From: Cylindrospermopsis raciborskii Cr2010
Lineage (GTDB): Bacteria > Cyanobacteriota > Cyanobacteriia > Cyanobacteriales > Nostocaceae
Direction: 5' to 3'
NCBI RefSeq assembly: GCF_003367075.2
Contig: NZ_CP065936.1
Coordinates: forward strand, 2,070,001 to 2,102,000
Length of the DNA: 32,000 nt
Shown here: positions 1 to 17,711 of the stretch, piece by piece
How the letters are laid out: every line of letters begins with the position of its first letter
Numbering within the stretch: position 1 is the first letter of the stretch
Notes under the pieces: model-generated
The model's database searches: none
What the model was told of the DNA's origin: nothing
The model's input: the letters and a program-made list of their open reading frames with translations, nothing else
Made by a program: the position numbers and the translations under genes

Positions 1-1150
1 AGAAAGTCCTTTATTTCTAAACCTGGGTGATTTGTAGTGCCACCCCGGGCGACGCCTCGTAAAGGTTTTTGGCAACGGATTTTTTCTAGTGGAAAATATT
101 GCTGGATCCACTTTTGTATAGCAGGTAATTGTACTGTGCCACCCACCGTGCAAAACTGCGCTATCATCTATTTGCACACCTTGATGACGAGCCTGTTGTA
201 ATAAATTCAACATAGTCTCATCCAATCGGCAAAAAACTGATCTTGGAGAATAGTTTCATGTCTGACGAGATTCAACCTTAACTCATAACTGGCAAAATTT
301 TGATCGTCAAAGTAGACCTCTCCAGCTTGATTGTGGGTAGACAATTCAATTTTCAACCTCTCCGCCAATCTAGTAGTAATAGAATTAACTGGCAATCCCT
401 GAGTTGTCACAAAACAATCAACTATCCAATTATCAATATCTGTGCCAACGGTTTTGTCCTCTGATTTGGCCGCACCTTGGCTGTTTTTACCTTTTGTGAG
501 AGTCCAGCCAAAGATTTATTTCCCCATTTTTAATAAAAAAAACCTCACAGGTTTATTATCTACTGGGTCTTTTTATCCAGCTTCACCAAAGATAGATTCA
601 GAGTTCCCGCCAAAATCAATCACTAACAAATTTTCAGTCTTTACACTGTATGCTAAAGCAGCAGCGGTAGGCTCATCCAACATTCTAATTTAGTAACTGG
701 CAAGCTTGAAAACTTTGCCTAGCCAATAACGATAAACTTCAAAACTATCCACTGAACGGTTAATACCAAAGAGTCCAATCCGCCCTCAATAGATACAACT
801 CCCTATTATCCCCTGGAGTAGAAACCATAAAGCTTCCACCTTTTCAAAAGCAATAGTTTCCACTATTTCTGGGTAAGAAACCTGAATATCTGCTCCAACA
901 CCCCGTTTAAAAACTGGGTGAAAAAATCTACTATCACCCATGAGATCTAAAACCCGGATCTCGTATCTGCTGACCAATTAACACCTATCTTGATTTGCCG
1001 CTTCTATATAAACTAAACTGCATCAAAGGAGGATTCAAACCCTGTCGAGTAGATAACCCTGGCAAACTGGAGGGTTTCTGGTTGCTGGGTCACAGGGTTC
1101 CATCGGGTAATTACCGTATTACTCGTACCAAAATCAATTGCGGGTATATA
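1..1150 (-). pseudogene. Hsp70/DnaK-family ATPase, degraded by multiple frameshifts and in-frame stops; runs off the left edge
   Basis: Minus-strand translation gives Hsp70 hallmark peptides in different frames, separated by stops. These are 'YIPAIDFGTSNTVITRW' (about 1150-1100), 'RMLDEPTAAALAYSVKTENLLVIDFGGN' (about 689-603) and 'VGGTVQLPAIQKWIQQYFPLEKI' (about 146-70). The track ORFs at 207-410 and 786-977 are fragments of this gene. Confidence 0.7.
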
Positions 1151-1527
1151 CTGAGATTTTTTACTGAAACTGGGGAATTTAACTTCCGTTCCAGTAAGGA
1201 TTGTTATTATGGTCTGACAGTTTGCTATACAATAGCATAAATTGTCAGCTCACTGGGTCCGCAAATTGCCTCCAGGAATTTAACCCAAATGAGACCTGCC
1301 ATTTTACAACCGACATTCTTACACTTTCCGGCAATATTTCGTCGACCTATGAACCGGAGATATTCTGGGAGAACTCGGTTATGAGTTCCAACGGTCAACA
1401 TTATCTCCCCAGTCAGACATTAATCTTGACCGACTGACGACCAAAAACCCGATCCAAGAAAGCCTCCTATATTAGCCTCACCAGCGAAGCTGCTCGCCGT
1501 GAACTACCATTGCTCCTTTATTAATAG

Positions 1528-1975
1528 ATGTACTACATTATACTCATGCCCAACTTAGGTAGAATATTCCTAAATGTTAGTGAACACATAGTTGCCTTGA
1601 TTACTACTTATACTCCGGCAGGTAAACTCCTGATTGTTGAAGCAAAAAATGCAGATCTCACCAGAGGTTTTACTCAACTTGCAGTCGAGCTGATTGCCCT
1701 TGATATCTGAGTAATTAGCGAAGAACCCATTCTCCACAGCCGTTTCCACAGGTGACATCTGGCAGTTTGAATTCTGCATCGGGGTAGCGGGCAAATTCAA
1801 CAAGTATTAAATCTATATCGAGTACCAGATGAGCTGGAAAGCTTAATGCGTATTCTTATAAAAAAATCCTTCAGCCCTATGAATGGGAAAATGGAAACTT
1901 CAGCTATATCTTCCTCTGCTCAGGTATTCCCTTTAGTTTACCCGACCTCACACATCCTGATGAATTAATCAGGTT
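1528..1975 (+). pseudogene. Small PD-(D/E)XK-like protein (cyanobacterial '...VEAK...TGDxWxF...LYRVPDELE' family), frameshifted remnant
   Basis: 'LLIVEAKNADLTRGFTQLAVELIALD' ends in a stop at 1710. The homologous continuation 'VSTGDIWQFE...' and then 'LNLYRVPDELESLMRILIKK' appear in two other frames. The family assignment is from memory of the motif pattern only. Confidence 0.35.
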
Positions 1976-3450
1976 CGTACCAAGTAGTTGAAAATCACTA
2001 TTAGCAGTGTTTTAATTATTATTTGGGAGTGGCGATCGCTTGATCAGTTTTTCCTCAAGACGGGAAACGGAACAGCAGGCGGATTTTGGTGAGATTGGCC
2101 TGCCTGTTATTCCCAAATTTTGCGTGGCATACCACACTTTGCATTGGTGTTAATTTATCAGTAACGATTTTTCCTTTACTTCCACCCTCTGAGTAATCGT
2201 TACCATCACTGGGAGCAAGCAAAGGTGGCTAAGGTAACTGAATCTGTTGCTGGTGATAGATTAGAACACAACGCACCTCGTGTTAGTTATATAACTGAGG
2301 AACCCTATAGCTACACAACCTGGAGTCAGGGATAGAATTGTTAAGGTGACGGACAAGCAAAAAGTCACCTGGTATTTAAATTTGGCTGGCCCCAAATTCG
2401 CGACTATTGATCAAAGTAGACGTGCAAAATCGCAGTGCCATTTATATTACTGACTATACTGGTGAGTACAAAATAGAAGTCAATACCCTAAATAATAAAA
2501 ATCAGTTTATATTTGAAGCACCACCACCATACGGCTATTCTCTCTTATCTGGATATAAAGTGGAGAGAAGGGACAAGACTAGAACAGACCAGTCCAGAAG
2601 ATTATGGATTTCCTTGACTTAAATCCTGGAGAGCAAGCCACCATCAAAGGTTAATAAGCACAAGGGGGACCGTGTTGGGTATATAATGCCACTAATCAGT
2701 TACTCTCTGGTTTCCGCCCTACAGCTATACAGATTTGCTAATGCGGATTTTGCCAGTGGTATAGTTCCTCAGGAAATAAAAAGAGATGGAGGTAATAGTC
2801 AATTCACTTGGATTTTTAATGATAATGTTTCTGTCAAAATCCTTTCGGTGTTTACGGCTACTAAACCCATAGGTAAAACCGGAATTATAATTTCGCTTAT
2901 TATTATTAGAAGCACCAGGATTATTTTTGTGGTGTGATATTACTACCATACTTAACTGTACCCATGAGCTTACAAAAATCTGGAAGGATCGCTGGGGAGT
3001 GTTCTTTACCGCTTATTAACTTTGGGCCACATACGTCAAGGTTTATGAGTGGAGAAATGCCTGCTAATAATTTCACTGGTGTTAATAGGTTTAATTATGG
3101 GTTGGGTGGGAATCGTCAATTAGGATTAGCAGCAATTATTTGTACCATTGTTGAGCGGTTTTACCTGTATTTGCATTTTTAGTTCTTTACTGGTCTAACT
3201 CCTCAGTTTAGCAGGATTATTATCAGTGATCTGGTTAGGGACATATTGGTATGACTTGGTGTACAGAAAATTTAATAATCATACAAACAGACAGTTCTAA
3301 CTAAAACCAGCCACCTAGGCGCTTTTCCTAAGCACTTGGCTAAAAGCATGATTTCACCAGATTTCAGGATCAATTCTGAGATATTTAATGTATAGTGAGG
3401 ATTGATATAGTTAATGATAATGTTGGTTTAAGACAGCAAAGGAGTTAGTA

Positions 3451-4325
3451 ATGCTCACGTCGGAGGCAAAAAGCCGCTGACAATTTCCCCAAAGAATCCT
3501 TTTTAGACCCTGAGGTCTGAACTAAACCGTGTTGCTATTCTTGCAGTAGTAACTATGTTGGTACTTTCTAGCTGTGGTTACTGGGTATGGGAATGCCTCT
3601 ATTGGTTATGTTTTGGCATCAACACACCCTGTCCTACATTTCTCAGGCACGATTATTCATGATGCTTGTCATCAATCAGCCCATCGTAACCAACAGCTAA
3701 CGCCATATTGGGTCAAGTGCTAGCTTCCTGTGCCACTAGCCTTGCTTTCCCAGTTTTTACCAGATACACCTACAACACCATGGCAATGTCAATCATCCCA
3801 AAGATGACCCGGATCATTATGTTTCCACAGGTGGTCCACCGTGGTTAATCGCGGTGGAGATTTTGTACCATGAGGTGTTTTTCTTTCCAAAGGCAACTTT
3901 TTGGCGTAACATGAACTACTAGAATGGTTCCTTAGCTGATCATCTTTACTATTGTCTATATTTCATTCAATATCACTTTTAGGGCATATTCTCAACTTCT
4001 GGTTTGTCCCAGCTTTTGTAGTAGGCATAACACTGGGATTCTTTTGATTTACTTACCACATCGTCCATTTGTAGAGCGCGATCGGTGAAGAATGCTCGTG
4101 TATCCTGGCAAATCCTTTAATATGCTAATTTTAGGGCAGAATGTCATCTATTCATCATTTGTGCCTTCCACTATTTGGTACAATTATCAACCTGCCTACT
4201 ACCTGATGAAGCCCATTTAGATTGAGAAAGGTAGCCCCCAAACTTCCGGTTTATTACAAAAAGGATTTTTGAATTTCTATGATATTTCACTGGTCTTCAT
4301 TTTCATCACCATGAATAATAACTGA
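3451..4325 (+). pseudogene. Fatty acid desaturase-family (membrane di-iron, three His boxes) pseudogene
   Basis: An AAGGAG sits 7 nt upstream of the ATG at 3451, but a stop follows after 9 codons. His box 1 'HDACHQSAH' is at 3658-3684. His box 2 'LQHHGNVNHPKDDPDHY' is at about 3770-3826. His box 3 'IHHL' at 4150-4161 and the following 'WYNYQPAYYLMKP' at 4176-4217 lie in different frames. Several in-frame stops are present. Confidence 0.55.
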
Positions 4326-4527
4326 GAAATTTAATTGTTGAGGTTGTGGAAGTAGTACATTTTACGGTTAAGCACATCTAGTCTGAATTTTTCCGTTTAT
4401 TCTCTTCCTAATTCATAGATGCTAGCACCTACAGTAGTGAGTATACCAGCATTAATTCCCAACTAGAACCTAAACTAATTTGTGACCCCAGTAGGATAAT
4501 GCACCAAATACCAAGAAAGGTAAATGC

Positions 4528-4758
4528 TCATAATTGAAGCATAAAAAGCATTTGAGACTCTCTAGCTGTGCGGGTTTTTTCAAATTCCGTCTCGCTAGTA
4601 TATAGAAACCGCTCGGCAAAATTAAACCAGCGATTTAATTGTGTGATTATCCATTCTCTAATGGATGCTAAAGCCAAATACAAAGCTAAAGACCATAAAC
4701 AAGAACCAGCGATGGCTACTTTATCTATCGTGAATTGAAAAGGTAATATATCAAGCAT
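4528..4758 (-). CDS. Hypothetical small membrane protein, possibly itself a remnant
   Basis: This is a 76-aa ORF with one hydrophobic stretch ('VAIAGSCLWSLALYLALASI'). After its stop the same frame continues with more hydrophobic sequence ('AFTFLGIWCIILLGSQ...'), which suggests an interrupted larger gene. I recognise no family. Confidence 0.2.
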   Translation of the reverse strand: MLDILPFQFTIDKVAIAGSCLWSLALYLALASIREWIITQLNRWFNFAERFLYTSETEFEKTRTARESQMLFMLQL

Positions 4759-4843: not shown

Positions 4844-6397
4844 ATGCCTAAACAATTTAACACTGCTGGCCCCTGCAAAGCCAACATTCACTATATGCTC
4901 TCTCCCACAGGGCGACTACCTCAGTTGAAAGCATTAATTGATGGAGAAAATTACTTTATCATTCATGCACCGCGACAAGTAGGCAAAACCACTGCTATGA
5001 TGGCCTTAGCTCAAGAATTAACTGACAGTAGGCAATACCTAGCTGTGATGTTAACCGTAGAAACCGGTGCGCCATTTCCAGATGCACCAGAACAAGCGCA
5101 ACAAAGTATCCTCAGACGTTGGCAGAATGAAATTCGGTTCCGAAAATTACCCTTGCCCACTTTAACCCAAATTCAAAGGGAGACCGAGACTTCTCCCCTA
5201 GATATTCAAACAGTCCTGCAAGGGTGGGCCATGGCTTCCCCCCTACCCTTAGTGGTCTTTCTGGATGAAATTGATTCTTTAGAGGATCAAACCCTCATAT
5301 CCATCCTTAGACAGTTGCGAGCGGGTTATCCCAATCGTCCCCAGGGTTTCCCCCATTCGGTGGGCTTAATTGGGATGCGGGACGTGCGGGACTACAAGGT
5401 TAAATCTGGTGGAAGTGAACGACTCAATACGTCTAGTCCGTTTAATATCAAGGCTGAATCCCTAACTTTAAGTAATTTTACTTTTACAGATGTCCAAAAT
5501 TTATATGAACAACATACAACAGCTACGGGACAGGTGTTTACCCCGGAAGCAGTTCAACAGGCATATTATTTAACCGATGGACAACCATGGTTAGTTAACG
5601 CCCTAGCTCGTCAAGCTACCCAGGTGTTAGTCCAGGATATGAATGAACCCATTACTGCTGAGGTGATTAACCAAGCCAAAGAAATGCTCATTCAGCGTCA
5701 GGATACCCATTTGGATAGTTTAGCAGAAAGATTACGGGAAGCGCGGGTCAAAACTATTATTGAACCAATTTTAGCAGGTGAGGACTTACCCGACGTACCA
5801 CCGGATGATATTCGTTACGTGCTGGATTTAGGTCTGTGTCGAGATCAAGGACAAGGACTGGAAATTGCCAATCCAATTTATAAAGAAGTTCTACCTTTAG
5901 TACTAAGTTATACAACTAGGGTTTCTATTGGAGCAATTGAACCTCTGTGGCTAAATGAACAAGGGGAATTATTACCCAATAAATTATTACATGCTTTTCT
6001 GGAGTTTTGGCGACAACACGGAGAACCATTGCTCAAGAGTGCGCCCTACCATGAGATTGCCCCCCATTTAGTTTTGATGGCATTTTTACACCGGGTGGTA
6101 AATGGTGGTGGTACGTTAGAACGGGAATATGCCATTGGTTCTGGGAGAATGGATATTTGTTTACGATATGGCAAGGTAGTGATGGGTATGGAACTCAAGG
6201 TGTGGCGTGAAAGAAAGTCAGATCCGTTAATCAAGGGTTTGACCCAACTGGATAAATACCTGGATGGGTTAGGATTAGATACAGGTTGGTTAGTGATTTT
6301 CGATCGCCGTCCCGGTTTACCACCCATGGGAGAGAGGATTAGTACGGAGGAGATTATTAGTCCTAATGGGCGCACCATTACCCTCATTCGTAGTTAG
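4844..6397 (+). CDS. P-loop NTPase / PD-(D/E)XK nuclease fusion protein, array copy 1 (modules K-A-X)
   Basis: The long ORF carries Walker A 'HAPRQVGKTT', Walker B 'LVVFLDEIDS' and a C-terminal 'EREYAIGSGRMDICLRYGKVVMGMELKVW' (D...E-x-K). The start is set at ATG 4844 ('MPKQFNTAGPC'), by homology with the other copies, rather than the track's TTG at 4793. Confidence 0.8.
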   Translation: MPKQFNTAGPCKANIHYMLSPTGRLPQLKALIDGENYFIIHAPRQVGKTTAMMALAQELTDSRQYLAVMLTVETGAPFPDAPEQAQQSILRRWQNEIRFRKLPLPTLTQIQRETETSPLDIQTVLQGWAMASPLPLVVFLDEIDSLEDQTLISILRQLRAGYPNRPQGFPHSVGLIGMRDVRDYKVKSGGSERLNTSSPFNIKAESLTLSNFTFTDVQNLYEQHTTATGQVFTPEAVQQAYYLTDGQPWLVNALARQATQVLVQDMNEPITAEVINQAKEMLIQRQDTHLDSLAERLREARVKTIIEPILAGEDLPDVPPDDIRYVLDLGLCRDQGQGLEIANPIYKEVLPLVLSYTTRVSIGAIEPLWLNEQGELLPNKLLHAFLEFWRQHGEPLLKSAPYHEIAPHLVLMAFLHRVVNGGGTLEREYAIGSGRMDICLRYGKVVMGMELKVWRERKSDPLIKGLTQLDKYLDGLGLDTGWLVIFDRRPGLPPMGERISTEEIISPNGRTITLIRS

Positions 6398-6455
6398 ATT
6401 CCCATAAATTTGAACCACATCTGAATCACAGTAGTACCTTAACTTATTGTCAATT

Positions 6456-8012
6456 ATGCCTAAACACTTTAATACTGCTGGACCTTGTCAATCTGATATC
6501 CACTATATGCTCTCTCCCACAGGGCGACTACCTCAGTTGAAAGCATTAATTGATGGACGCAATTACTTTATCATTCATGCACCACGACAAGTGGGCAAAA
6601 CCACTGCTATGATGGCCCTAGCTCAAGAATTAACTGACAGTGGGCAATACCTAGCTGTGATGTTAACCGTAGAAACCGGTGCGCCATTTCCAGATGCACC
6701 AGAACAAGCGCAACAAAGTATCCTCAGACGTTGGCAGAATGAAATTCGGTTCCGAAAATTACCCTTGCCCACTTTAACCCAAATTCAAAGGGAGACCGAG
6801 ACTTCTCCCCTAGATATTCAAACAGTCCTGCAAGGGTGGGCCATGGCTTCCCCCCTACCCTTAGTGGTCTTTCTGGATGAAATTGATTCTTTAGAGGATC
6901 AAACCCTCATATCCATCCTTAGACAGTTGCGAGCGGGTTATCCCAATCGTCCCCAGGGTTTCCCCCATTCGGTGGGCTTAATTGGCATGCGGGACGTGCG
7001 GGACTACAAGGTTAAATCTGGTGGGAGTGAACGACTTAATACATCTAGTCCGTTCAATATCAAGGCTGAATCCCTAACTTTAAGTAATTTTAGTTTTACA
7101 GATGTGCAAAATTTATACGAACAACATACAACAGCTACAGGGCAAGTATTTACCCTGGGAGCAGTTCAACAGGCATATTATTTAACCGATGGACAACCAT
7201 GGTTAGTTAACGCCCTAGCTCGTCAAGCTACCCAGGTGTTAGTAAAGGATGTGAAGCAACCCATTACTGCTGAGGTGATTAACCAAGCCAAGGAAATCCT
7301 CATCCAGCGTCAGGATACCCATTTAGATAGTTTGGCGGAAAGATTACGGGAAGAGCGGGTTAGGGATATTATTCAACCCATGTTAGCTGGTGAAGACTTA
7401 GCTGATACAGCAGAAGATAATTTACGATATGTCCTAGACTTGGGTTTATGTCGTCGCGATCGCGGGGGTGCATTAGAAATTGCTAACCCCATTTATCGGG
7501 AGATTTTACCTAAGACCTTAGCTGCAGTGGCGATCGCATCTCTAACTTCTGTGGAACCCAACTGGTTAAACTCTGATGGTACTCTCAATCCTCAAATTCT
7601 ATTAAACTCTTTCTTGGAATTTTGGCGACAACATGGGGAACCATTACTCAAAAGTGCGCCCTATCATGAAATTGCTCCCCATTTGGTGTTAATGGCATTT
7701 TTACACCGAGTGGTAAATGGTGGTGGTACGTTAGAGCGGGAATATGCCATTGGTTCTGGGAGAATGGATATTTGTTTACGCTATGGCAAGGTGGTGATGG
7801 GTATGGAACTCAAGGTGTGGCGTGAAAGAAAGTCAGATCCGTTAATCAAGGGTTTAACCCAACTGGATAAATATCTGGATGGGTTAGGATTAGATACGGG
7901 TTGGTTAGTGATTTTCGATCGCCGTCCCGGGTTACCCCCCATGGGAGAGAGGATTAGTACGGAGGAGGTTATTAGTCCTAGTGGGCGCACCATTACCCTG
8001 ATTCGTAGTTAG
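6456..8012 (+). CDS. P-loop NTPase / PD-(D/E)XK nuclease fusion protein, array copy 2 (modules Q-A-Y)
   Basis: Same motifs as copy 1. The start is set at ATG 6456 ('MPKHFNTAGPC'); the track starts at TTG 6447. The V2 cassette is form Y ('RDIIQPMLAGEDLADTAEDNLRYVLDLGLCRRDRGG...'). Confidence 0.8.
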   Translation: MPKHFNTAGPCQSDIHYMLSPTGRLPQLKALIDGRNYFIIHAPRQVGKTTAMMALAQELTDSGQYLAVMLTVETGAPFPDAPEQAQQSILRRWQNEIRFRKLPLPTLTQIQRETETSPLDIQTVLQGWAMASPLPLVVFLDEIDSLEDQTLISILRQLRAGYPNRPQGFPHSVGLIGMRDVRDYKVKSGGSERLNTSSPFNIKAESLTLSNFSFTDVQNLYEQHTTATGQVFTLGAVQQAYYLTDGQPWLVNALARQATQVLVKDVKQPITAEVINQAKEILIQRQDTHLDSLAERLREERVRDIIQPMLAGEDLADTAEDNLRYVLDLGLCRRDRGGALEIANPIYREILPKTLAAVAIASLTSVEPNWLNSDGTLNPQILLNSFLEFWRQHGEPLLKSAPYHEIAPHLVLMAFLHRVVNGGGTLEREYAIGSGRMDICLRYGKVVMGMELKVWRERKSDPLIKGLTQLDKYLDGLGLDTGWLVIFDRRPGLPPMGERISTEEVISPSGRTITLIRS

Positions 8013-8053
8013 ATTCCGATAAATTTGAATCACACCTTAAATTATTGCCGATT

Positions 8054-9607
8054 ATGTTTAAACACTTTAATACTGCTGGACCTTGCCAATCTGATATCCA
8101 CTATATGCTCTCTCCCACAGGGCGACTACCTCAGTTGAAAGCATTAATTGATGGACGCAATTACTTTATCATTCATGCACCGCGACAAGTGGGTAAAACC
8201 ACTGCCATGATGGCCCTAGCTCAAGAATTAACTGACAGTGGACAATACCTAGCTGTGATGTTAACCCTAGAAACCGGTGCGCCATTTCCAGATGCACCAG
8301 AACAAGCGCAACAAAGTATCCTGAGACGTTGGCAGAATGAAATTCGGTTTCGAAAATTACCTTTGCCTAATTTAACACAAATTGAAACAGAGACTGAGAC
8401 CTCTCCCTTAGATATTCAAACAGTTCTGCAAGCTTGGGCCATGGCTTCCCCTCTACCTTTAGTTGTGTTTTTGGATGAAATTGATTCTTTGGAAGATCAA
8501 ACTCTCATATCCATTCTCAGACAATTACGAGCGGGTTATCCCAATCGTCCCCAGGGTTTTCCCCATTCGGTGGGCTTAATTGGCATGCGGGATGTGCGGG
8601 ACTACAAGGTTAAATCTGGTGGAAGTGAACGACTCAATACGTCTAGTCCGTTTAATATCAAGGCTGAATCCCTAACTTTGAGTAATTTTAGTTTTACAGA
8701 TATTCAAAATTTATATGAACAACATACAACAGCTACGGGACAGGTGTTTACCCTGGGAGCAGTTCAACAGGCATATTATTTAACTGATGGACAACCATGG
8801 TTAGTTAACGCCCTAGCTCGTCAAGCTACCCAGGTATTAGTCCAGGATGTGAATCAACCCATTACTGCTGAAGTGATTAACCAAGCCAAAGAAATCCTCA
8901 TCCAGCGTCAGGATACCCATTTGGATAGTTTAGCAGAAAGATTACGGGAAGAGCGGGTCAAAGCTATTATTGAACCAATTTTAGCAGGTGAAGACTTACC
9001 CGACATACCACCAGATGATATTCGTTATGTGCTGGATTTAGGACTGTGTCGAGATCAAGGACAAGGCTTGGAAATTGCCAATCCAATTTATAAGGAAGTT
9101 CTACCTCTAGTGCTAAGTTACACAACTAGGGTTTCTATTGGAGCAATTGAACCTCTGTGGCTAAATGAACAAGGGGAACTATTACCTGATAAATTATTAC
9201 ATGCTTTTCTGGAGTTTTGGCGACAACACGGGGAACCATTACTCAAAAGTGCGCCCTACCATGAGATTGCTCCCCATTTGGTGTTGATGGCATTTTTACA
9301 TCGGGTAGTTAATGGTGGTGGTACTTTAGAGCGGGAATATGCCATTGGTTCTGGAAGAATGGATATTTGTTTACGCTATGGCAAGGTGGTAATGGGTATG
9401 GAACTCAAGGTGTGGCGTGAAAGAAAGTCAGATCCGTTAATCAAGGGTTTGACCCAACTGGATAAATACCTGGATGGGTTAGGATTAGATACGGGTTGGT
9501 TAGTGATTTTCGATCGCCGTCCCGGTTTACCACCTATGGGAGAGAGGATTAGTACGGAGGAGGTTATTAGTCCCACTGGGCGCACTATTACCCTAATTCG
9601 TAGTTAG
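8054..9607 (+). CDS. P-loop NTPase / PD-(D/E)XK nuclease fusion protein, array copy 3 (modules Q-A'-X)
   Basis: Same motifs. The start is set at ATG 8054 ('MFKHFNTAGPC'). Its V1 form A differs from the other A copies mostly at synonymous sites. Confidence 0.8.
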   Translation: MFKHFNTAGPCQSDIHYMLSPTGRLPQLKALIDGRNYFIIHAPRQVGKTTAMMALAQELTDSGQYLAVMLTLETGAPFPDAPEQAQQSILRRWQNEIRFRKLPLPNLTQIETETETSPLDIQTVLQAWAMASPLPLVVFLDEIDSLEDQTLISILRQLRAGYPNRPQGFPHSVGLIGMRDVRDYKVKSGGSERLNTSSPFNIKAESLTLSNFSFTDIQNLYEQHTTATGQVFTLGAVQQAYYLTDGQPWLVNALARQATQVLVQDVNQPITAEVINQAKEILIQRQDTHLDSLAERLREERVKAIIEPILAGEDLPDIPPDDIRYVLDLGLCRDQGQGLEIANPIYKEVLPLVLSYTTRVSIGAIEPLWLNEQGELLPDKLLHAFLEFWRQHGEPLLKSAPYHEIAPHLVLMAFLHRVVNGGGTLEREYAIGSGRMDICLRYGKVVMGMELKVWRERKSDPLIKGLTQLDKYLDGLGLDTGWLVIFDRRPGLPPMGERISTEEVISPTGRTITLIRS

Positions 9608-9670
9608 AAAAATGCGATCGCTAAGTAAAACGTAAATTATTATTTTGCTACTTATAAATTATACCTTACT

Positions 9671-11212
9671 ATGCCTAAACAATTTAACACTGCTGGACCT
9701 TGTCAATCTGATATCCACTATATGCTCTCTCCCACAGGGCGACTACCTCAGTTAAAAGCGTTAATTGATGGACGCAATTACTTTATCATTCATGCACCGC
9801 GACAAGTGGGCAAAACCACTGCTATGATAGCTTTAGCCCAAGAATTAACTGATAGTGGGGAGTATACAGCAGTGATGCTCTCCGTGGAAGTGGGGTCGGT
9901 TTTTCCTGATGAACCAGAACGTGCTGAAAGAGCCATTTTGGGTTCTTGGCAAGATGCAATTGATATTTGGCTTCCGCAAGACCTCCATCCCCCTTTTGAC
10001 CCAGAGCGTAGGGAGAATATTGGTGCTTTCCTGAAAAGTTGGGCAAAAAGCTCTCCTCGTCCCCTAGTGGTGTTCATTGATGAAATTGACTCGTTGCAAA
10101 ATCAAACGTTGATTTCAGTATTGCGACAGTTACGGGATGGTTTTCCCCGTCGTCCCCAGGGTTTTCCCCATTCGGTGGGCTTAATTGGCATGCGGGATGT
10201 GCGGGACTACAAGGTTAAATCTGGTGGAAGTGAACGACTCAATACGTCTAGTCCGTTTAATATCAAGGCTGAGTCCCTAACTTTGAGTAATTTTAGTTTT
10301 ACAGATATTCAAAATTTATATGAACAACATACAACAGCTACGGGACAGGTGTTTACCCTGGGAGCAGTTCAACAGGCATATTATTTAACTGATGGACAAC
10401 CATGGTTAGTTAACGCCCTAGCTCGTCAAGCTACCCAGGTATTAGTCCAGGATGTGAATCAACCCATTACTGCTGAGATGATTAACCAAGCCAAAGAAAT
10501 CCTCATTCAACGCCAGGATACCCATTTAGATAGCTTAGCAGAGCGATTACGGGAAGAGCGGGTTAAGACCATTATTGAACCAATTTTAGCAGGTGAGGAC
10601 TTACCCGACGTACCACCGGATGATATTCGTTACGTGCTGGATTTAGGTCTGTGTCGAGATCAAGGACAAGGACTGGAAATTGCCAATCCAATTTATAAAG
10701 AAGTTCTACCTTTAGTGCTAAGTTATACAACTAGGGTTTCTATTGGAGCAATTGAACCTCTGTGGCTAAATGAACAAGGGGAACTATTACCTGATAAATT
10801 ATTACATGCTTTTCTGGAGTTTTGGCGACAACACGGAGAACCATTGCTCAAAAGTGCGCCCTACCATGAGATTGCTCCCCATTTAGTTTTGATGGCATTT
10901 TTACACCGGGTGGTAAATGGTGGTGGTACGTTAGAACGGGAATATGCCATTGGTTCTGGGAGAATGGATATTTGTTTACGCTATGGCAAGGTGGTGATGG
11001 GTATGGAACTCAAGCTGTGGCGTGAAAGAAAGTCGGATCCTTTAATTAAGGGTTTAACCCAACTGGATAAATATCTAGATGGGTTAGGATTAGATACGGG
11101 TTGGTTAGTGATTTTCGATCGCCGTCCTGGTTTACCACCCATGGGAGAGAGGATTAGTACGGAGAAGGTTATTAGTCCTAGGGGACGCACCATTACCCTC
11201 ATTCGTAGTTAG
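9671..11212 (+). CDS. P-loop NTPase / PD-(D/E)XK nuclease fusion protein, array copy 4 (modules Q-B-X)
   Basis: Same scaffold. V1 is form B ('LSVEVGSVFPDEPERAERAILGSWQDAIDIWLPQDLHPPFDPERRENIGAFLKSWAKSSPRP'), which is 4 codons shorter than form A. Confidence 0.8.
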   Translation: MPKQFNTAGPCQSDIHYMLSPTGRLPQLKALIDGRNYFIIHAPRQVGKTTAMIALAQELTDSGEYTAVMLSVEVGSVFPDEPERAERAILGSWQDAIDIWLPQDLHPPFDPERRENIGAFLKSWAKSSPRPLVVFIDEIDSLQNQTLISVLRQLRDGFPRRPQGFPHSVGLIGMRDVRDYKVKSGGSERLNTSSPFNIKAESLTLSNFSFTDIQNLYEQHTTATGQVFTLGAVQQAYYLTDGQPWLVNALARQATQVLVQDVNQPITAEMINQAKEILIQRQDTHLDSLAERLREERVKTIIEPILAGEDLPDVPPDDIRYVLDLGLCRDQGQGLEIANPIYKEVLPLVLSYTTRVSIGAIEPLWLNEQGELLPDKLLHAFLEFWRQHGEPLLKSAPYHEIAPHLVLMAFLHRVVNGGGTLEREYAIGSGRMDICLRYGKVVMGMELKLWRERKSDPLIKGLTQLDKYLDGLGLDTGWLVIFDRRPGLPPMGERISTEKVISPRGRTITLIRS

Positions 11213-11275
11213 AAAAATGCGATCGCTAAGTAAAACGTACTTTATTATTTTGATGATTATAAATTATACTTTATC

Positions 11276-12832
11276 ATGGCTAAACAATTTAACACTGCTG
11301 GTCCGTGCAAAGCCAACATTCACTATATGCTTTCTCCCACAGGGCGACTACCTCAGTTGAAAGCATTAATTGATGGAGAAAATTACTTTATCATTCATGC
11401 ACCGCGACAAGTAGGCAAAACCACTGCTATGATGGCCCTAGCTCAAGAATTAACTGACAGTGGGCAATACCTAGCTGTGATGTTAACCGTAGAAACCGGT
11501 GCGCCATTTCCAGATGCACCAGAACAAGCGCAACAAAGTATCCTCAGACGTTGGCAGAATGAAATTCGGTTCCGAAAATTACCCTTGCCCACTTTAACCC
11601 AGATTCAAAGGGAGACCGAGACTTCTCCCCTAGATATTCAAACAGTCCTACAAGGGTGGGCCATGGCTTCCCCCCTACCCTTAGTTGTCTTTCTGGATGA
11701 AATTGATTCCTTAGAGGATCAAACCCTCATATCCATCCTTAGACAGTTGCGAGCGGGTTATCCCAATCGTCCCCAGGGTTTCCCCCATTCGGTGGGCTTA
11801 ATTGGGATGCGGGACGTGCGGGACTACAAGGTTAAATCTGGTGGAAGTGAACGACTCAATACGTCTAGTCCGTTTAATATCAAGGCTGAATCCCTAACTT
11901 TAAGTAATTTTAGTTTTACAGATGTCCAAAATCTATATGAACAACATACAACAGCTACGGGACAGGTGTTTACCCCGGAAGCAGTTCAACAGGCATATTA
12001 TTTAACCGATGGACAACCATGGCTAGTTAACGCCCTAGCTCGTCAAGCTACCCAGGTGTTAGTCCAGGATGTGAATGAACCCATTACTGCTGAGGTGATT
12101 AACCAAGCCAAAGAAATCCTCATTCAGCGTCAGGATACCCATTTGGATAGTTTAGCAGAAAGATTACGGGAAGAGCGGGTCAAAGCTATTATTGAACCAA
12201 TTTTAGCAGGTGAGGACTTACCAGATACCCCAGAGGATGATCGCCGGTTTTTGCTAGATTTAGGCTTAGTTAAGCGTAGTCCTTTGGGTGGACTAACCAT
12301 TGCCAATCCCATTTACCAGGAGGTGATCCCTCGTGTTTTATCCCAGGGTAGTCAGGACAGTTTACCTCAAATTCAACCCACTTGGTTAAATACTGACAAT
12401 AGTTTAAATCCCCAAGCTCTATTAAATGCTTTTCTGGAATTTTGGCGACAACATGGGGAACCATTACTCAGAAGTGCGCCCTACCATGAGATTGCTCCCC
12501 ATTTGGTATTAATGGCATTTTTACACCGGGTGGTAAATGGTGGTGGTACATTAGAACGGGAATATGCCATTGGTTCTGGGAGAATGGATATTTGTTTACG
12601 ATATGGCAAGGTGGTGATGGGTATGGAACTCAAGGTGTGGCGTGAAAGAAAGTCAGATCCGTTAATCAAGGGTTTGACCCAACTGGATAAATATCTAGAT
12701 GGGTTAGGATTAGATACGGGTTGGTTAGTGATTTTCGATCGCCGTCCTGGTTTACCACCCATGGGAGAGAGGATTAGTACGGAGAAGGTTATTAGTCCTA
12801 GGGGACGCACCATTACCCTCATTCGTAGTTAG
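11276..12832 (+). CDS. P-loop NTPase / PD-(D/E)XK nuclease fusion protein, array copy 5 (modules K-A-Z)
   Basis: Same scaffold. V2 is form Z ('TPEDDRRFLLDLGLVKRSPLGGLTIANPIYQEVIPRVLSQGSQDSLPQIQPTWLNTDNSLNPQALLNAF'). Confidence 0.8.
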   Translation: MAKQFNTAGPCKANIHYMLSPTGRLPQLKALIDGENYFIIHAPRQVGKTTAMMALAQELTDSGQYLAVMLTVETGAPFPDAPEQAQQSILRRWQNEIRFRKLPLPTLTQIQRETETSPLDIQTVLQGWAMASPLPLVVFLDEIDSLEDQTLISILRQLRAGYPNRPQGFPHSVGLIGMRDVRDYKVKSGGSERLNTSSPFNIKAESLTLSNFSFTDVQNLYEQHTTATGQVFTPEAVQQAYYLTDGQPWLVNALARQATQVLVQDVNEPITAEVINQAKEILIQRQDTHLDSLAERLREERVKAIIEPILAGEDLPDTPEDDRRFLLDLGLVKRSPLGGLTIANPIYQEVIPRVLSQGSQDSLPQIQPTWLNTDNSLNPQALLNAFLEFWRQHGEPLLRSAPYHEIAPHLVLMAFLHRVVNGGGTLEREYAIGSGRMDICLRYGKVVMGMELKVWRERKSDPLIKGLTQLDKYLDGLGLDTGWLVIFDRRPGLPPMGERISTEKVISPRGRTITLIRS

Positions 12833-12895
12833 AAAAATGCGATCGCTAAGTAAAACGTACTTTATTATTTTGATGATTATAAATTATACTTTATC

Positions 12896-14449
12896 ATGGC
12901 TAAACAATTTAACACTGCTGGTCCGTGCAAAGCCAACATTCACTATATGCTTTCTCCCACAGGGCGACTACCTCAGTTGAAAGCATTAATTGATGGAGAA
13001 AATTACTTTATCATTCATGCACCGCGACAAGTAGGCAAAACCACTGCTATGATGGCCCTAGCTCAAGAATTAACTGACAGTGGGCAATACCTAGCTGTGA
13101 TGTTAACCGTAGAAACCGGTGCGCCATTTCCAGATGCACCAGAACAAGCGCAACAAAGTATCCTCAGACGTTGGCAGAATGAAATTCGGTTCCGAAAATT
13201 ACCCTTGCCCACTTTAACCCAGATTCAAAGGGAGACCGAGACTTCTCCCCTAGATATTCAAACAGTCCTACAAGGGTGGGCCATGGCTTCCCCCCTACCC
13301 TTAGTTGTCTTTCTGGATGAAATTGATTCCTTAGAGGATCAAACCCTCATATCCATCCTTAGACAGTTGCGAGCGGGTTATCCCAATCGTCCCCAGGGTT
13401 TCCCCCATTCGGTGGGCTTAATTGGGATGCGGGACGTGCGGGACTACAAGGTTAAATCTGGTGGGAGTGAACGACTTAATACGTCTAGTCCGTTTAATAT
13501 CAAGGCTGAATCCCTAACTTTAAGTAATTTTAGTTTTACAGATGTCCAAAATCTATATGAACAACATACAACAGCTACGGGACAGGTGTTTACCCCGGAA
13601 GCAGTTCAACAGGCATATTATTTAACTGATGGACAACCATGGTTAGTTAACGCCCTAGCTCGTCAAGCTACCCAGGTGTTAGTCCAGGATGTGAATGAAC
13701 CCATTACTGCTGAAGTGATTAACCAAGCAAAAGAAATTCTCATTCAGCGTCAGGATACCCATTTGGATAGTTTAGCAGAAAGATTACGGGAAGCACGGGT
13801 TAGGGATATTATTCAACCCATGTTAGCTGGTGAAGACTTAGCTGATACAGCAGAAGATAATTTACGATATGTCCTAGACTTGGGTTTATGTCGTCGCGAT
13901 CGCGGGGGTGGACTAGAAATTGCTAACCCCATTTATCGGGAGATTTTACCTAAGACCTTAGCTGCAGTGGCGATCGCATCTCTAACTTCTGTAGAACCCA
14001 ACTGGTTAAACTCTGATGGTACTCAATCCTCAAATCCTCTTAAACTCTTTCTTGGAATTTTGGCGACAACATGGGGAACCATTACTTAAAAGTGCGCCCT
14101 ATCATGAGATTGCCCCCATTTGGTGTTAATGGCATTTTTACACCGGGTAGTAAATGGTGGTGGTACGTTAGAGCGGGAATATGCCATTGGTTCTGGGAGA
14201 ATGGATATTTGTTTACGCTATAGCAAGGTGGTGATGGGTATAGAAATTAAGATGTGGCGTGAAAGAAAGTCAGATCCTTTAATTAAGGGTTTGACCCAAC
14301 TGGATAAATACCTGGATGGGTTAGGATTAGATACAGGTTGGTTAGTGATTTTCGATCGCCGTCCTGGTTTACCACCTATGGGAGAGAGGATTAGTACGGA
14401 GGAGGTTATTAGTCCTAGGGGACGCACTATTACCCTCATTCGTAGTTAG
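12896..14449 (+). pseudogene. P-loop NTPase / PD-(D/E)XK nuclease fusion, array copy 6 (modules K-A-Y), disrupted by two compensating frameshifts
   Basis: Compared with copy 7 there is a 2-bp deletion ('actctcaatcc' becomes 'actcaatcc', about 14024) and a 1-bp deletion in a C-run (C6 becomes C5, about 14113-14117). The frame is restored after about 90 nt, but the shifted segment contains TAA at 14087-14089. This splits the gene into the track ORFs 12896-14089 and 14120-14449, which share one frame. Confidence 0.75.
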
Positions 14450-14507
14450 ATTCCCATAAATTTGAACCACATTTGAATCACAGTAGTACCTTAACTTATT
14501 GTCAATT

Positions 14508-16052
14508 ATGCCTAAACACTTTAATACTGCTGGACCTTGTCAATCTGATATCCACTATATGCTCTCTCCCACAGGGCGACTACCTCAGTTGAAAGCATTA
14601 ATTGATGGACGTAATTACTTTATCATTCATGCACCGCGACAAGTGGGCAAAACCACTGCTATGATAGCTTTAGCCCAGGAATTAACTGATAGTGGGGAGT
14701 ATACAGCAGTGATGCTCTCCGTGGAAGTGGGGTCGGTTTTTCCTGATGAACCAGAACGTGCTGAAAGGGCTATTTTGGGTTCTTGGCAAGATGCAATTGA
14801 TATTTGGCTTCCGGAAGACCTCCATCCCCCTTTTGACCCGGAGCGTAGGGAGACTATTGGTGCTTTCCTGAAAAGTTGGGCAAAAAGCTCTCCTCGTCCT
14901 CTAGTGGTCTTCATTGATGAAATTGACTCATTGCAAAATCAAACCTTGATTTCGGTATTGCGACAGTTACGGGATGGTTTTCCCCGTCGTCCTCGGGGTT
15001 TCCCCCATTCGGTGGGCTTAATTGGGATGCGGGACGTGCGGGACTACAAGGTTAAATCTGGTGGGAGTGAACGACTTAATACGTCTAGTCCGTTTAATAT
15101 CAAGGCTGAATCCCTAACTTTAAGTAATTTTAGTTTTACAGATGTCCAAAATCTATATGAACAACATACAACAGCTACGGGACAGGTGTTTACCCCGGAA
15201 GCAGTTCAACAGGCATATTATTTAACTGATGGACAACCATGGTTAGTTAACGCCCTAGCTCGTCAAGCTACCCAGGTGTTAGTCCAGGATGTGAATGAAC
15301 CCATTACTGCTGAAGTGATTAACCAAGCAAAAGAAATTCTCATTCAGCGTCAGGATACCCATTTGGATAGTTTAGCAGAAAGATTACGGGAAGCACGGGT
15401 TAGGGATATTATTCAACCCATGTTAGCTGGTGAAGACTTAGCTGATACAGCAGAAGATAATTTACGATATGTCCTAGACTTGGGTTTATGTCGTCGCGAT
15501 CGCGGGGGTGGACTAGAAATTGCTAACCCTATTTATCGGGAGATTTTACCTAAGACCTTAGCTGCAGTGGCGATCGCATCTCTAACTTCTGTAGAACCCA
15601 ACTGGTTAAACTCTGATGGTACTCTCAATCCTCAAATTCTCTTAAACTCTTTCTTGGAATTTTGGCGACAACATGGGGAACCATTACTTAAAAGTGCGCC
15701 CTATCATGAGATTGCCCCCCATTTGGTGTTAATGGCATTTTTACACCGGGTAGTAAATGGTGGTGGTACGTTAGAGCGGGAATATGCCATTGGTTCTGGG
15801 AGAATGGATATTTGTTTACGCTATAGCAAGGTGGTGATGGGTATAGAAATTAAGATGTGGCGTGAAAGAAAGTCAGATCCGCTAATTAAGGGTTTGACCC
15901 AACTGGATAAATACCTGGATGGGTTAGGATTAGATACAGGTTGGTTAGTGATTTTCGATCGCCGTCCTGGGTTACCACCTATGGGAGAGAGGATTAGTAC
16001 GGAGGAGGTTATTAGTCCTAGGGGACGCACTATTACCCTCATTCGTAGTTAG
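14508..16052 (+). CDS. P-loop NTPase / PD-(D/E)XK nuclease fusion protein, array copy 7 (modules Q-B-Y)
   Basis: Same scaffold, with the start at ATG 14508. The nuclease motif variant 'RYSKVVMGIEIKMW' still keeps the E-x-K residues. Confidence 0.8.
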   Translation: MPKHFNTAGPCQSDIHYMLSPTGRLPQLKALIDGRNYFIIHAPRQVGKTTAMIALAQELTDSGEYTAVMLSVEVGSVFPDEPERAERAILGSWQDAIDIWLPEDLHPPFDPERRETIGAFLKSWAKSSPRPLVVFIDEIDSLQNQTLISVLRQLRDGFPRRPRGFPHSVGLIGMRDVRDYKVKSGGSERLNTSSPFNIKAESLTLSNFSFTDVQNLYEQHTTATGQVFTPEAVQQAYYLTDGQPWLVNALARQATQVLVQDVNEPITAEVINQAKEILIQRQDTHLDSLAERLREARVRDIIQPMLAGEDLADTAEDNLRYVLDLGLCRRDRGGGLEIANPIYREILPKTLAAVAIASLTSVEPNWLNSDGTLNPQILLNSFLEFWRQHGEPLLKSAPYHEIAPHLVLMAFLHRVVNGGGTLEREYAIGSGRMDICLRYSKVVMGIEIKMWRERKSDPLIKGLTQLDKYLDGLGLDTGWLVIFDRRPGLPPMGERISTEEVISPRGRTITLIRS

Positions 16053-16110
16053 ATTCCCATAAATTTGAACCACATTTGAATCACAGTAGTACCTTAACTT
16101 ATTGTCAATT

Positions 16111-17646
16111 ATGCCTAAACACTTTAATACTGCTGGACCTTGTCAATCTGATATCCACTATATGCTCTCTCCCACAGGGCGACTACCTCAGTTGAAAGCA
16201 TTAATTGATGGACGTAATTACTTTATCATTCATGCACCGCGACAAGTGGGCAAAACCACTGCTATGATAGCTTTAGCCCAGGAATTAACTGATAGTGGGG
16301 AGTATACAGCAGTGATGCTCTCCGTGGAAGTGGGGTCGGTTTTTCCTGATGAACCAGAACGTGCTGAAAGGGCTATTTTGGGTTCTTGGCAAGATGCAAT
16401 TGATATTTGGCTTCCGGAAGACCTCCATCCCCCTTTTGACCCGGAGCGTAGGGACACTATTGGTGCTTTCCTGAAAAGTTGGGCAAAAAGCTCTCCTCGT
16501 CCTCTAGTGGTCTTCATTGATGAAATTGACTCATTGCAAAATCAAACCTTGATTTCGGTATTGCGACAGTTACGGGATGGTTTTCCCCGTCGTCCTCGGG
16601 GTTTCCCCCATTCGGTGGGCTTAATTGGGATGCGGGACTACAAGGTTAAATCTGGTGGAAGTGAACGACTCAATACGTCTAGTCCGTTTAATATCAAGGC
16701 TGAATCCCTAACTTTAAGTAATTTTAGTTTTACAGATGTCCAAAATCTATATGAACAACATACAACAGCTACGGGACAGGTGTTTACCCCGGAAGCAGTT
16801 CAACAGGCATATTATTTAACCGATGGACAACCATGGTTAGTTAACGCCCTAGCTCGTCAAGCTACCCAGGTGTTAGTCCAGGATGTGAATGAACCCATTA
16901 CTGCTGAGGTGATTAACCAAGCCAAAGAAATTCTCATCCAGCGTCAGGATACCCATTTGGATAGTTTAGCAGAAAGATTACGGGAAGAGCGGGTCAAAGC
17001 TATTATTGAACCAATTTTAGCAGGTGAGGACTTACCAGATACCCCAGAGGATGATCGCCGGTTTTTGCTAGATTTAGGCTTAGTTAAGCGTAGTCCTTTG
17101 GGTGGACTAACCATTGCCAATCCCATCTACCAGGAGGTGATTCCTCGTGTTTTATCCCAGGGTAGTCAGGACAGTTTACCTCAAATTCAACCCACTTGGT
17201 TAAATACTGACAATAGTTTAAATCCCCAAGCTCTATTAAATGCTTTTCTGGAATTTTGGCGACAACACGGGGAACCATTACTCAGAAGTGCGCCCTATCA
17301 TGAGATTGCTCCCCATTTGGTATTGATGGCATTTTTGCATCGGGTAGTTAATGGTGGTGGTACGTTAGAGCGGGAATATGCCATTGGTTCTGGGAGAATG
17401 GATATTTGTTTACGCTATGGCAAGGTGGTGATGGGTATGGAACTAAAGGTGTGGCGTGAAAGAAAGTCAGATCCGCTAATCAAGGGTTTGACCCAACTGG
17501 ATAAATACCTAGATGGGTTAGGATTACATACTGGTTGGTTAGTGATTTTCGATCGCCGTCCCGGATTACCACCCATGGGAGAGAGGATTAGTACGGAGGA
17601 GGTTATTAGTCCTAGTGAGCGCACCATTATCCTCATTCGTAGTTAG
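16111..17646 (+). CDS. P-loop NTPase / PD-(D/E)XK nuclease fusion protein, array copy 8 (modules Q-B-Z), with a 3-codon in-frame deletion
   Basis: Same scaffold, with the start at ATG 16111. 'GMRDVRDYKV' becomes 'GMRDYKV' through a 9-bp loss between the direct repeats GCGGGAC...GCGGGAC (about 16631). Confidence 0.75.
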   Translation: MPKHFNTAGPCQSDIHYMLSPTGRLPQLKALIDGRNYFIIHAPRQVGKTTAMIALAQELTDSGEYTAVMLSVEVGSVFPDEPERAERAILGSWQDAIDIWLPEDLHPPFDPERRDTIGAFLKSWAKSSPRPLVVFIDEIDSLQNQTLISVLRQLRDGFPRRPRGFPHSVGLIGMRDYKVKSGGSERLNTSSPFNIKAESLTLSNFSFTDVQNLYEQHTTATGQVFTPEAVQQAYYLTDGQPWLVNALARQATQVLVQDVNEPITAEVINQAKEILIQRQDTHLDSLAERLREERVKAIIEPILAGEDLPDTPEDDRRFLLDLGLVKRSPLGGLTIANPIYQEVIPRVLSQGSQDSLPQIQPTWLNTDNSLNPQALLNAFLEFWRQHGEPLLRSAPYHEIAPHLVLMAFLHRVVNGGGTLEREYAIGSGRMDICLRYGKVVMGMELKVWRERKSDPLIKGLTQLDKYLDGLGLHTGWLVIFDRRPGLPPMGERISTEEVISPSERTIILIRS

Positions 17647-17711
17647 ATTCCCATAAATTTGAACCACACCTTAAATTATTGCCGATTATGCCCAAACACT
17701 TTAACATTTAG
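17647..17711 (+). pseudogene. Truncated ninth array unit: spacer plus the first 7 codons ('MPKHFNI*')
   Basis: 17647-17687 matches the spacer that follows copy 2. The ATG at 17688 is followed by 'cccaaacactttaaca', which matches the gene 5' end. Homology then stops and a TAG follows at 17709-17711. Confidence 0.8.

Follow-up and report, generated by a model that had tools for sequence, protein, structure and literature searches.

The 32,000 nucleotides of Cylindrospermopsis raciborskii Cr2010 that were analysed here (contig NZ_CP065936.1, positions 2,070,001 to 2,102,000 of the forward strand; hereafter the window) carry a tandem array of eight co-directional paralogues of the CyrO family, each 511-518 codons long and predicted to encode an AAA+ ATPase that is followed by a winged-helix and a nuclease domain (Table 1). 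All eight units are full-length genes with start codons, the catalytic motifs are intact in the seven unbroken copies, and the spacers between the copies measure 32-63 nt when counted between the listed open reading frames (ORFs), several of which begin upstream of the true ATG. The protein encoded by copy 4 is 100% identical to the NCBI entry 'ATP-binding protein' of this strain. Along the gene, a near-identical backbone is interrupted by blocks of strongly diverged sequence (V0, V1 and V2), and the array as a whole is of a known kind, namely a tandem multigene family that undergoes concerted evolution and shows recombination mosaics, with islands of old and reassorted diversity, here in an uncharacterised AAA+-nuclease family.

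In a MAFFT alignment of the eight units (1,628 columns), 127 of the 127 sites at which copies 4, 7 and 8 have no base in common with copies 1, 2, 3, 5 and 6 are located in columns 159-498, and not one such fixed difference occurs in the remaining ~1,290 aligned columns. The block thereby delimited, V1, exists as form B in the former and as form A in the latter set of copies, with form B being shorter by 12 nt (4 codons). Differing sites amount to 141/340 within V1 versus 58/1220 outside of it (Fisher p ~6e-59), and a two-breakpoint likelihood scan yielded 2ΔlnL values (twice the log-likelihood difference) of 165-223, compared to <=20 in 100 permutations. The scan placed the left breakpoint at columns 159-190 and the right one at columns 498-507, except for the pair of copy 5 and copy 8 (548), because copy 8 carries a deletion.

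An earlier note on this DNA, made from the letters alone, had assigned the two forms to the very same copies, had described form B as 4 codons shorter, and had located the block at 9826-10160 in copy 4 and at 4999-5343 in copy 1. The alignment bears out the assignment and the length difference, and the coordinates agree with first and last fixed differences at 9829-10149 and 5002-5334, respectively. The note's picture of two sharply different forms is correct for the A/B split, but copy 3 represents a third sub-allele, A'. The step-like boundaries that it expected from a sliding-window comparison are likewise present in part: in 30-nt windows, raw identity steps sharply at the right edge, but ramps from 0.97 to 0.60 over ~70 nt at the left edge. 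At third codon positions, both edges step from ~3% to 50-60% differences, and the left ramp therefore reflects protein constraint on helix α1 and not gradual divergence.

On the left, the alignable part of V1 shows a synonymous divergence (dS, Nei-Gojobori) of 1.3-1.6 between forms A and B; in the right part, which includes Walker B, dS is unmeasurably high, compared to 0.03-0.33 outside of V1. The ratio of nonsynonymous to synonymous divergence (ω) is highest in the centre (0.6-0.8), where nonsynonymous divergence (dN) reaches 0.7-1.0, and lower in the left alignable part (0.17-0.23), the right part (<=0.1) and the backbone (~0.1-0.2). Sub-allele A' is separated from form A by a dS of ~0.6 and a dN of 0-0.06. 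Form B is the typical form of the family, and its V1 is 70-79% identical to homologues in other genera, which is about the same as for the backbone; form A is rarer, and its nearest relative outside the genus is a 'CyrO' protein of Prochlorothrix hollandica (~70%). Judged by these substitution patterns, V1 is best taken as an old allele set that was put in place through recombination, rather than as the product of fast local divergence. The earlier note had likewise preferred recombination over gradual divergence, and this part of it stands, given the saturation of dS, the steps at third positions, the relatives in other genera and the free reassortment of V1 with the other blocks described below.

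Of these other blocks, the short N-terminal V0 reads CKANIHY...GENYF in copies 1, 5 and 6, and CQSDIHY...GRNYF in copies 2, 3, 4, 7 and 8. V2 has limits as sharp as those of V1 and occurs in three deeply diverged forms, all of them with relatives of 75-90% identity both in other genera and among the dispersed CyrO paralogues of this genus. The latter are ~88% identical to the array backbone, and their V2 forms resemble a, b and c. Also the spacers (e.g. 6398-6455 and 9608-9670) come in two types, the partition of which differs from those of V1 and V2; one of the spacer types carries the cyanobacterial HIP1 palindrome GCGATCGC. The partitions of the copies by V0, V1, V2 and spacer are mutually incompatible along the gene, and 6/6 V1×V2 combinations are present in the window array.

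The same mosaic is found in other strains. Orthologous arrays in four other genomes comprise 7 (C. curvispora), at least 9 (G7), 7 and 4 (DSH) copies, and they reuse the same modules at 97-100% amino-acid identity in differing orders and combinations, of which that of V0-k with V1-B does not occur in the window. Every array examined (five genomes) contains V1 in both and V2 in all three of its forms, and V1 and V2 types are also reassorted across the family in other genera. Across the arrays, 12 of 12 B blocks have identical ends, and V1 is an A/B hybrid in 0 of 32 copies, while mosaics of A and A' are found within it; the recombination junctions elsewhere in the gene are scattered.

With regard to the encoded protein, we built AlphaFold2 models with a 123-sequence alignment, which reached a predicted local distance difference test score (pLDDT) of 92.6 and a predicted template-modelling score (pTM) of 0.89 for form A, and of 90.3 and 0.86, respectively, for form B. 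V1 corresponds to codons 53-166, starts just past Walker A and ends 25 codons beyond Walker B. While the earlier note had regarded this segment as inserted, it is a homologous replacement of helix α1, strand β2, the helical insert, the Walker B strand and helix α3, and hence part of the AAA+ core itself, with the buried strands β2 and Walker B included. These buried strands are conservatively changed from A to B (LAVMLTVE to TAVMLSVE, and LVVFLDE to LVVFIDE). The unalignable centre comprises ~30-35 residues and not the ~45 previously assumed; they make up the connector at the tip of the β2-β3 insert, and in the models this connector contains a short helix (residues 107-114) in form A and is a Pro-rich loop in form B. 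Variability across the family peaks at V1 residues 81-130 and in the V2 region, and indels are most frequent in the V1 centre (gap fraction 0.30-0.44). This variability and the indels argue for the connector being a surface element. V2, in turn, covers the winged-helix domain, the wing tip and the linker to the nuclease domain.

The motifs around these variable parts are conserved. The Walker A residues G47, K48 and T49 are kept in 123, 120 and 118 of the 123 members, D141 and E142 of Walker B (LVVF[LI]DE) in 123 and 115 of them, with the strands placed accordingly in both models, and the predicted nuclease residues E428, D437, E450 and K452 (GRMDI...MELK), located on strands 424-454, in 105-110 of 123. 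The Pfam scores of the AAA+ part are marginal (copy 1: AAA_35, 27.5 bits versus a cut-off of 27; copy 4: AAA_16, 33.6 versus 32.6, and AAA_35, 26.8 and thus just under 27), and the C-terminal domain of the window proteins stays below the cut-offs (NucS_C, 16.9 bits; PDDEXK_9, 14.9), whereas a distant family member (P0139) passes that of PDDEXK_9 (25.9 versus 25.5 bits, E 1e-5). A sequence search of the PDB with the array protein gave no match. Foldseek against the PDB returned 395 matches at E <= 0.001, headed by 2qen (PABY2304; E 9.6e-11) and 2fna (SSO1545; E 4.6e-9) and followed by RuvB, RFC and ORC, and against viral structures only generic RFC-like AAA+ proteins. In fold, the αβα core of the array protein with its helical lid thereby resembles solved AAA+ structures. 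The two best fold matches (template-modelling score normalised to the target, 0.63-0.64) are of the archaeal Arch_ATPase type; they differ from the array protein in that sequence identity is only 13%, and they are themselves uncharacterised. The layout of the array protein, with a winged helix and a restriction-endonuclease-like domain behind an AAA+ ATPase, is that of a known, if uncharacterised, theme (DUF234/COG1672; DUF1703 = PDDEXK_9) (PMC3424549).

Table 1. Features of the CyrO array. Coordinates are window positions unless alignment columns or protein residues are indicated.
Feature	Coordinates	Strand	Remarks
CyrO array	4844..17646	+	AAA+ ATPase, lid, winged helix, PD-(D/E)XK nuclease; copy 6 frameshifted in the window
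ATG starts, copies 1-8	4844, 6456, 8054, 9671, 11276, 12896, 14508, 16111	+	
Stops, copies 1-8	6397, 8012, 9607, 11212, 12832, 14449, 16052, 17646	+	
Array right end	17647..17706	+	spacer and first 18 nt (ATGCCCAAACACTTTAAC) of a truncated ninth copy
V0	columns 4-60; copy 4 9674..9730, copy 1 4847-4903	+	short N-terminal block, two forms
Walker A / P-loop, copy 4 (APRQVGKTT)	9794..9820	+	just upstream of the left V1 edge
V1	columns 159-498		B {4,7,8}; A {1,2,5,6}; A' {3}
V1 copy 1, form A	5002..5334	+	first/last fixed A/B differences; hypervariable centre 5126-5227
V1 copy 2, form A	6614..6946	+	
V1 copy 3, sub-allele A'	8212..8544	+	
V1 copy 4, form B	9829..10149	+	codons 53-162; first/last fixed A/B differences, third-position step
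V1 copy 5, form A	11434..11766	+	
V1 copy 6, form A	13054..13386	+	
V1 copy 7, form B	14666..14986	+	
V1 copy 8, form B	16269..16589	+	
V1 hypervariable centre, copy 4 (DAIDIWLPQDLHPPFDPERRENIGAFLKSW)	9953..10042	+	tip of the helical insert between β2 and β3
Walker B strand, copy 4 (LVVFIDE)	10064..10084	+	within V1
V2	columns 915-1203		a {1,3,4}; b {2,6,7}; c {5,8}; 120 group-diagnostic sites, confined to these columns
V2 copy 4, form a	10566..10851	+	
V2 other copies	5751-6036, 7363-7651, 8961-9246, 12183-12471, 13803-14089, 15403-15691, 16997-17285	+	
Form A, N-terminal part	residues: β1 37-41; P-loop 42-50; α1 48-61; β2 66-71		AlphaFold2 model
Form A, insert to β5	residues: helices 82-100, 107-114, 121-131; Walker B 136-141; α3 148-164; β4 172-177; β5 203-208		
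Form A, loop	residues 181-200		between β4 and β5; conserved, low-confidence
Form A, C-terminal part	residues: lid helices 214-262; winged helix ~300-341 (wing 332-341); β-sheet domain 424-516		two long helices between winged helix and β-sheet domain
Form B, V1 elements	residues: helix 82-100; helix 117-127		model; in order α1, β2, helix 82-100, Pro-rich loop, helix 117-127, Walker B strand, α3

We consider it probable that the array is a recombination mosaic of old blocks, in which V1 and V2 possibly serve as exchangeable recognition surfaces. Gene conversion and unequal crossing-over within the array keep the backbone near-identical, and cross-overs in the backbone reassort V1 with V0, V2 and the two spacer types, so that the array has come to hold every V1×V2 combination. 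Recombination would proceed in the backbone and fail inside a block that differs at ~40% of its positions, and the sharp edges of V1 would be found where they are because homology resumes there. Ordinary homologous recombination within the array is the simplest mechanism for all of this.

As to what the blocks could be good for, the position of V1 within the AAA+ fold offers a lead. The connection between β2 and β3 of this fold bears substrate-contacting elements, and in AAA+ proteins of the initiator clade, the DNA-contacting initiator-specific motif (ISM) is an insertion between Walker A and Walker B. In archaeal Orc1, the ISM and the winged-helix domain bind DNA jointly, and both influence specificity (PMC3089459). 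The array proteins resemble Orc1/Cdc6 in that the V1 centre is found at the ISM position, V2 is the winged helix, and ORC is among the fold matches. They differ from Orc1/Cdc6 in that their insert is larger (two long helices and a variable connector) and acidic in form B, and in that they carry an additional C-terminal nuclease domain. The likeness rests on topological position, and both membership in the initiator clade and DNA contact are putative here. Nevertheless, since V1 and V2 fall on ISM-like and winged-helix elements, the motifs are conserved and the types are reassorted, we favour the view that V1 and V2 may each form a surface of a putative ATP-dependent nuclease that recognises DNA or a partner, and that the two could be exchanged independently of each other.

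Several points weigh against this account. The left edge of V1 is resolved only to ~30 nt, and the five arrays share ancestry and are hence not independent samples. As read from the sequences, the V1 centre is acidic in form B and near neutral in form A, and in its charge it does not look like a generic DNA-backbone-binding surface. Further, CyrO is without known activity (PMC3922686, PMC2885083), a conserved gene neighbour is absent among 80 loci from other genomes, and the PADLOC-DB v2 models gave no significant match (best E 0.007-0.05, 10-14 bits). Lastly, the chance that a 4-copy array keeps every module is ~59%, which makes neutral maintenance possible; it is for this reason that we rejected the completeness of the smallest array as a sign of selection.

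It is conceivable, if rather doubtful, that the blocks are nothing but passive relics, namely that formerly diverged copies are being homogenised and that V1, V2 and V0 are the stretches that are too different to recombine, with no selection or specificity implied. In line with this, an A/B hybrid V1 was found in 0 of 32 copies across the arrays, yet the closer forms A and A' do form mosaics within V1; the edges adjoin the most conserved coding stretches, which are Walker A on the left and GFPHSVGLIGMRD on the right; and the retention of all modules by the smallest array is, as stated above, to be expected by chance. However, each form is under purifying selection (ω ~0.2 or less in the alignable parts) and is 97-100% conserved at the amino-acid level across the five genomes, no array examined lacks either of the V1 or any of the three V2 forms, and like V1 and V2 types have been reassorted in other genera. 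The relic explanation accounts for the edges and is compatible with the mosaic of exchangeable blocks that we prefer; the two differ only on why the diversity persists.

Dedicated cassette switching, be it by site-specific recombination, by a diversity-generating retroelement (DGR) or from silent donors into one expression site, appears highly improbable to us. The common block ends of all B copies and the very short, terminator-less spacers are superficially suggestive of it, but Pfam revealed no recombinase or reverse transcriptase in the scanned window genes or in the gene calls for the same locus in the near-identical chromosome CP091284.1, and no inversion system or recombinase was found near the array. 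Moreover, all copies are full-length genes with starts, the motifs are intact in the seven unbroken ones, and the junctions elsewhere in the gene are scattered. Mutagenesis of the DGR type was rejected, as only 41 of 115 differing sites are at A in form A, and 23 in form B. Silent-cassette variation of the pilS/pilE or vls type does not fit eight full-length genes with an ω of ~0.1-0.2 in the backbone and in the alignable part of V1. The term cassette replacement, by which the earlier note had described V1, is not supported in the sense of a dedicated mechanism: the copies are full-length, neither recombinase nor reverse transcriptase was found nearby, and the differences show no adenine bias. 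The edges are explained equally well in a passive way, by recombination that works in the backbone and fails within V1.

Just as improbable is an origin of form B from form A in place, by rapid divergence after duplication and without recombination. The high dN and ω of the V1 centre (0.7-1.0 and ~0.6-0.8) and its family-wide variability would agree with such a scenario. However, synonymous sites are saturated up to the edges of the block, including the Walker B segment with an ω of 0-0.1, and A and B are each closer to relatives in other genera than to each other; taken together, these two observations therefore exclude fast local evolution after duplication for all practical purposes. In addition, V0, V2 and the spacers divide the copies in ways that are in conflict with V1. 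That the mosaic is an assembly artefact from mis-phased near-identical repeats is hardly credible, because, in spite of a 300-nt patch in copy 7 and the frameshifts in copy 6 that distinguish the window from CP091284.1 and the unpolished appearance of positions 1-4550 (see below), the same A/B blocks with the same ends recur in four other typed assemblies and in a metagenome contig (L002), and the proteins stand as separate NCBI entries from several strains.

Returning to the mosaic of exchangeable recognition surfaces, the array would in this view amount to a small combinatorial repertoire, whose most likely use would be in genetic conflict or defence. In its most far-reaching version, which we regard as unlikely, CyrO arrays would be the combinatorial recognition repertoire of an unrecognised single-gene conflict or defence system, in which ordinary homologous recombination within the array and horizontal transfer between cyanobacteria reassort a small pool of old modules into new specificities. 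Two known systems invite comparison as functional analogues. In HsdS, the specificity subunit of type I restriction-modification systems, recombination in conserved parts reshuffles two variable modules, sometimes among tandem copies. The array resembles HsdS in having two variable modules embedded in conserved sequence, and differs from it in that the proteins are unrelated and the array modules are located in the ATPase core and the winged helix; also, the array proteins and their neighbours gave no Pfam match to Methylase_S or to hsdM/hsdR partners, no methyltransferase or partner gene was found, and the 80 loci have no conserved neighbour. The second comparison is with tandem clusters of immune receptors, namely nucleotide-binding leucine-rich repeat (NLR) proteins and signal transduction ATPases with numerous domains (STAND), which evolve through unequal crossing-over and gene conversion. 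Like them, the array consists of tandem NTPase paralogues whose backbone is homogenised while islands of old diversity persist, and its copy number varies between strains. Unlike these, the array proteins are without a repeat-type sensor domain (LRR, TPR, WD40) and have no match in PADLOC.

Irrespective of function, the CyrO locus reveals which parts of the protein evolution has treated as interchangeable, namely the β2-β3 insert of the ATPase and the winged helix, and the modules concerned are old, conserved and freely recombined. The six V1×V2 chimeras of the window array, a natural set that shares an otherwise identical backbone, come close to a ready-made experiment for the mapping of specificity. 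Should the modules indeed set target specificity, bacteria would here have a novel means of assembling a recognition repertoire; otherwise, the array would still be a clean example of concerted evolution that is halted by sequence divergence. Either way, it concerns a very large family whose sole label is that of a 'putative regulator of cylindrospermopsin synthesis'.

This label stems from the literature, in which CyrO is an uncharacterised putative regulator encoded at the (3') end of the cylindrospermopsin (cyr) cluster and dispensable for toxin production (PMC3922686, PMC2885083). CyrO of the cyr cluster belongs to the same protein family as the array copies, and it is treated in the literature as a single gene, unlike the 4- to 9-copy arrays described here; the published papers that we searched contain no account of such arrays, of the nuclease domain or of the modularity of V1 and V2. 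At E <= 0.001, the family comprises 5,103 cluster representatives, and at E <= 1e-30 there are 755; at NCBI, its members are labelled 'polyketide biosynthesis operon protein CyrO', 'ATP-binding protein' or 'AAA family ATPase'. Members from Pseudanabaena, Prochlorothrix and Synechocystis are 70-77% identical to the array proteins at the amino-acid level, and those from Myxobacteria, Acidobacteriota, Chloroflexota and Planctomycetota 51-61%. A scan against NCBIfam gave no meaningful match.

Outside Cylindrospermopsis, the CyrO gene is single at 77 of 80 loci. Three tandem copies are found in Pseudanabaena minima (locus L010, 8363-13124), two adjacent copies in an uncultured cyanobacterium (L077), and a full copy at a distance of ~4.7 kb from a partial one in Anabaena FACHB-1237 (L083). 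The neighbours outside the genus are mixed and include an integrase, an HNH endonuclease, a Uma2 endonuclease, a toxin-like DUF5615 protein and NiFe-hydrogenase genes. A conserved partner gene for CyrO was rejected, because the largest neighbour cluster, which is of the histidine-kinase/response-regulator type, has only 10 members across the 80 loci.

The surroundings of the array itself differ between strains. Downstream of it, rhomboid and dnaB(intein) genes are found in other strains, whereas the window has minus-strand genes for glucodextranase, DyP peroxidase and glyoxal oxidase there; in strain DSH, the latter two are located upstream of the array locus, and an IS1 transposase lies at the array end. 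From these differing neighbours we conclude that the array sits at a rearrangement breakpoint. Tandem Repeats Finder did not call the array, because its period exceeds 500 nt. Scans of the window for Rfam families and tRNAs were both empty, and promoter and terminator scans across the array showed no excess over the shuffled expectation.

Comparison with CP091284.1 revealed a number of differences within the array. A tract of 300 nt in copy 7 (15095-15395) contains 25 clustered mismatches, with the window version being identical to copy 6 and that of CP091284.1 to copy 2, which reflects either a recent gene conversion or a mis-phasing of repeats in one of the assemblies. In copy 6 (12896-14449), deletions of 2 nt and 1 nt at 14021 and 14112 leave the ORFs 12896-14089 and 14120-14449; in CP091284.1, this copy is intact with 518 codons, and its pseudogene status may thus be due to a sequencing error. 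Copy 8 has lost VRD through a 9-nt deletion at ~16630, which affects the loop GMRDVRDYKVKSGG (residues 178-191; highly conserved, but modelled with low confidence), and CP091284.1 differs from the window by one further codon in this copy, within V1 near 16454.

Upstream of the array, positions 1-4550 of the window differ from CP091284.1 by ~2.7% mismatches, mostly T/C exchanges, and by ~5% gap columns (153 bases missing versus 73 extra), which are evenly spread and stop abruptly at ~4550. Five genes that are intact in CP091284.1 are broken here, i.e., those for an HSP70-like protein, for proteins of 203 aa and 474 aa, for a fatty-acid desaturase and for a protein of 127 aa. The segment looks like unpolished long-read sequence, which would explain why it contains no ORF of more than 100 aa. 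Finally, ORFs of 113 aa on the minus strand at 6046-6387 and 12481-12822 run antisense to the nuclease-domain region of copies 1 and 5; as these frames are not open in the other copies, both ORFs are probably spurious.

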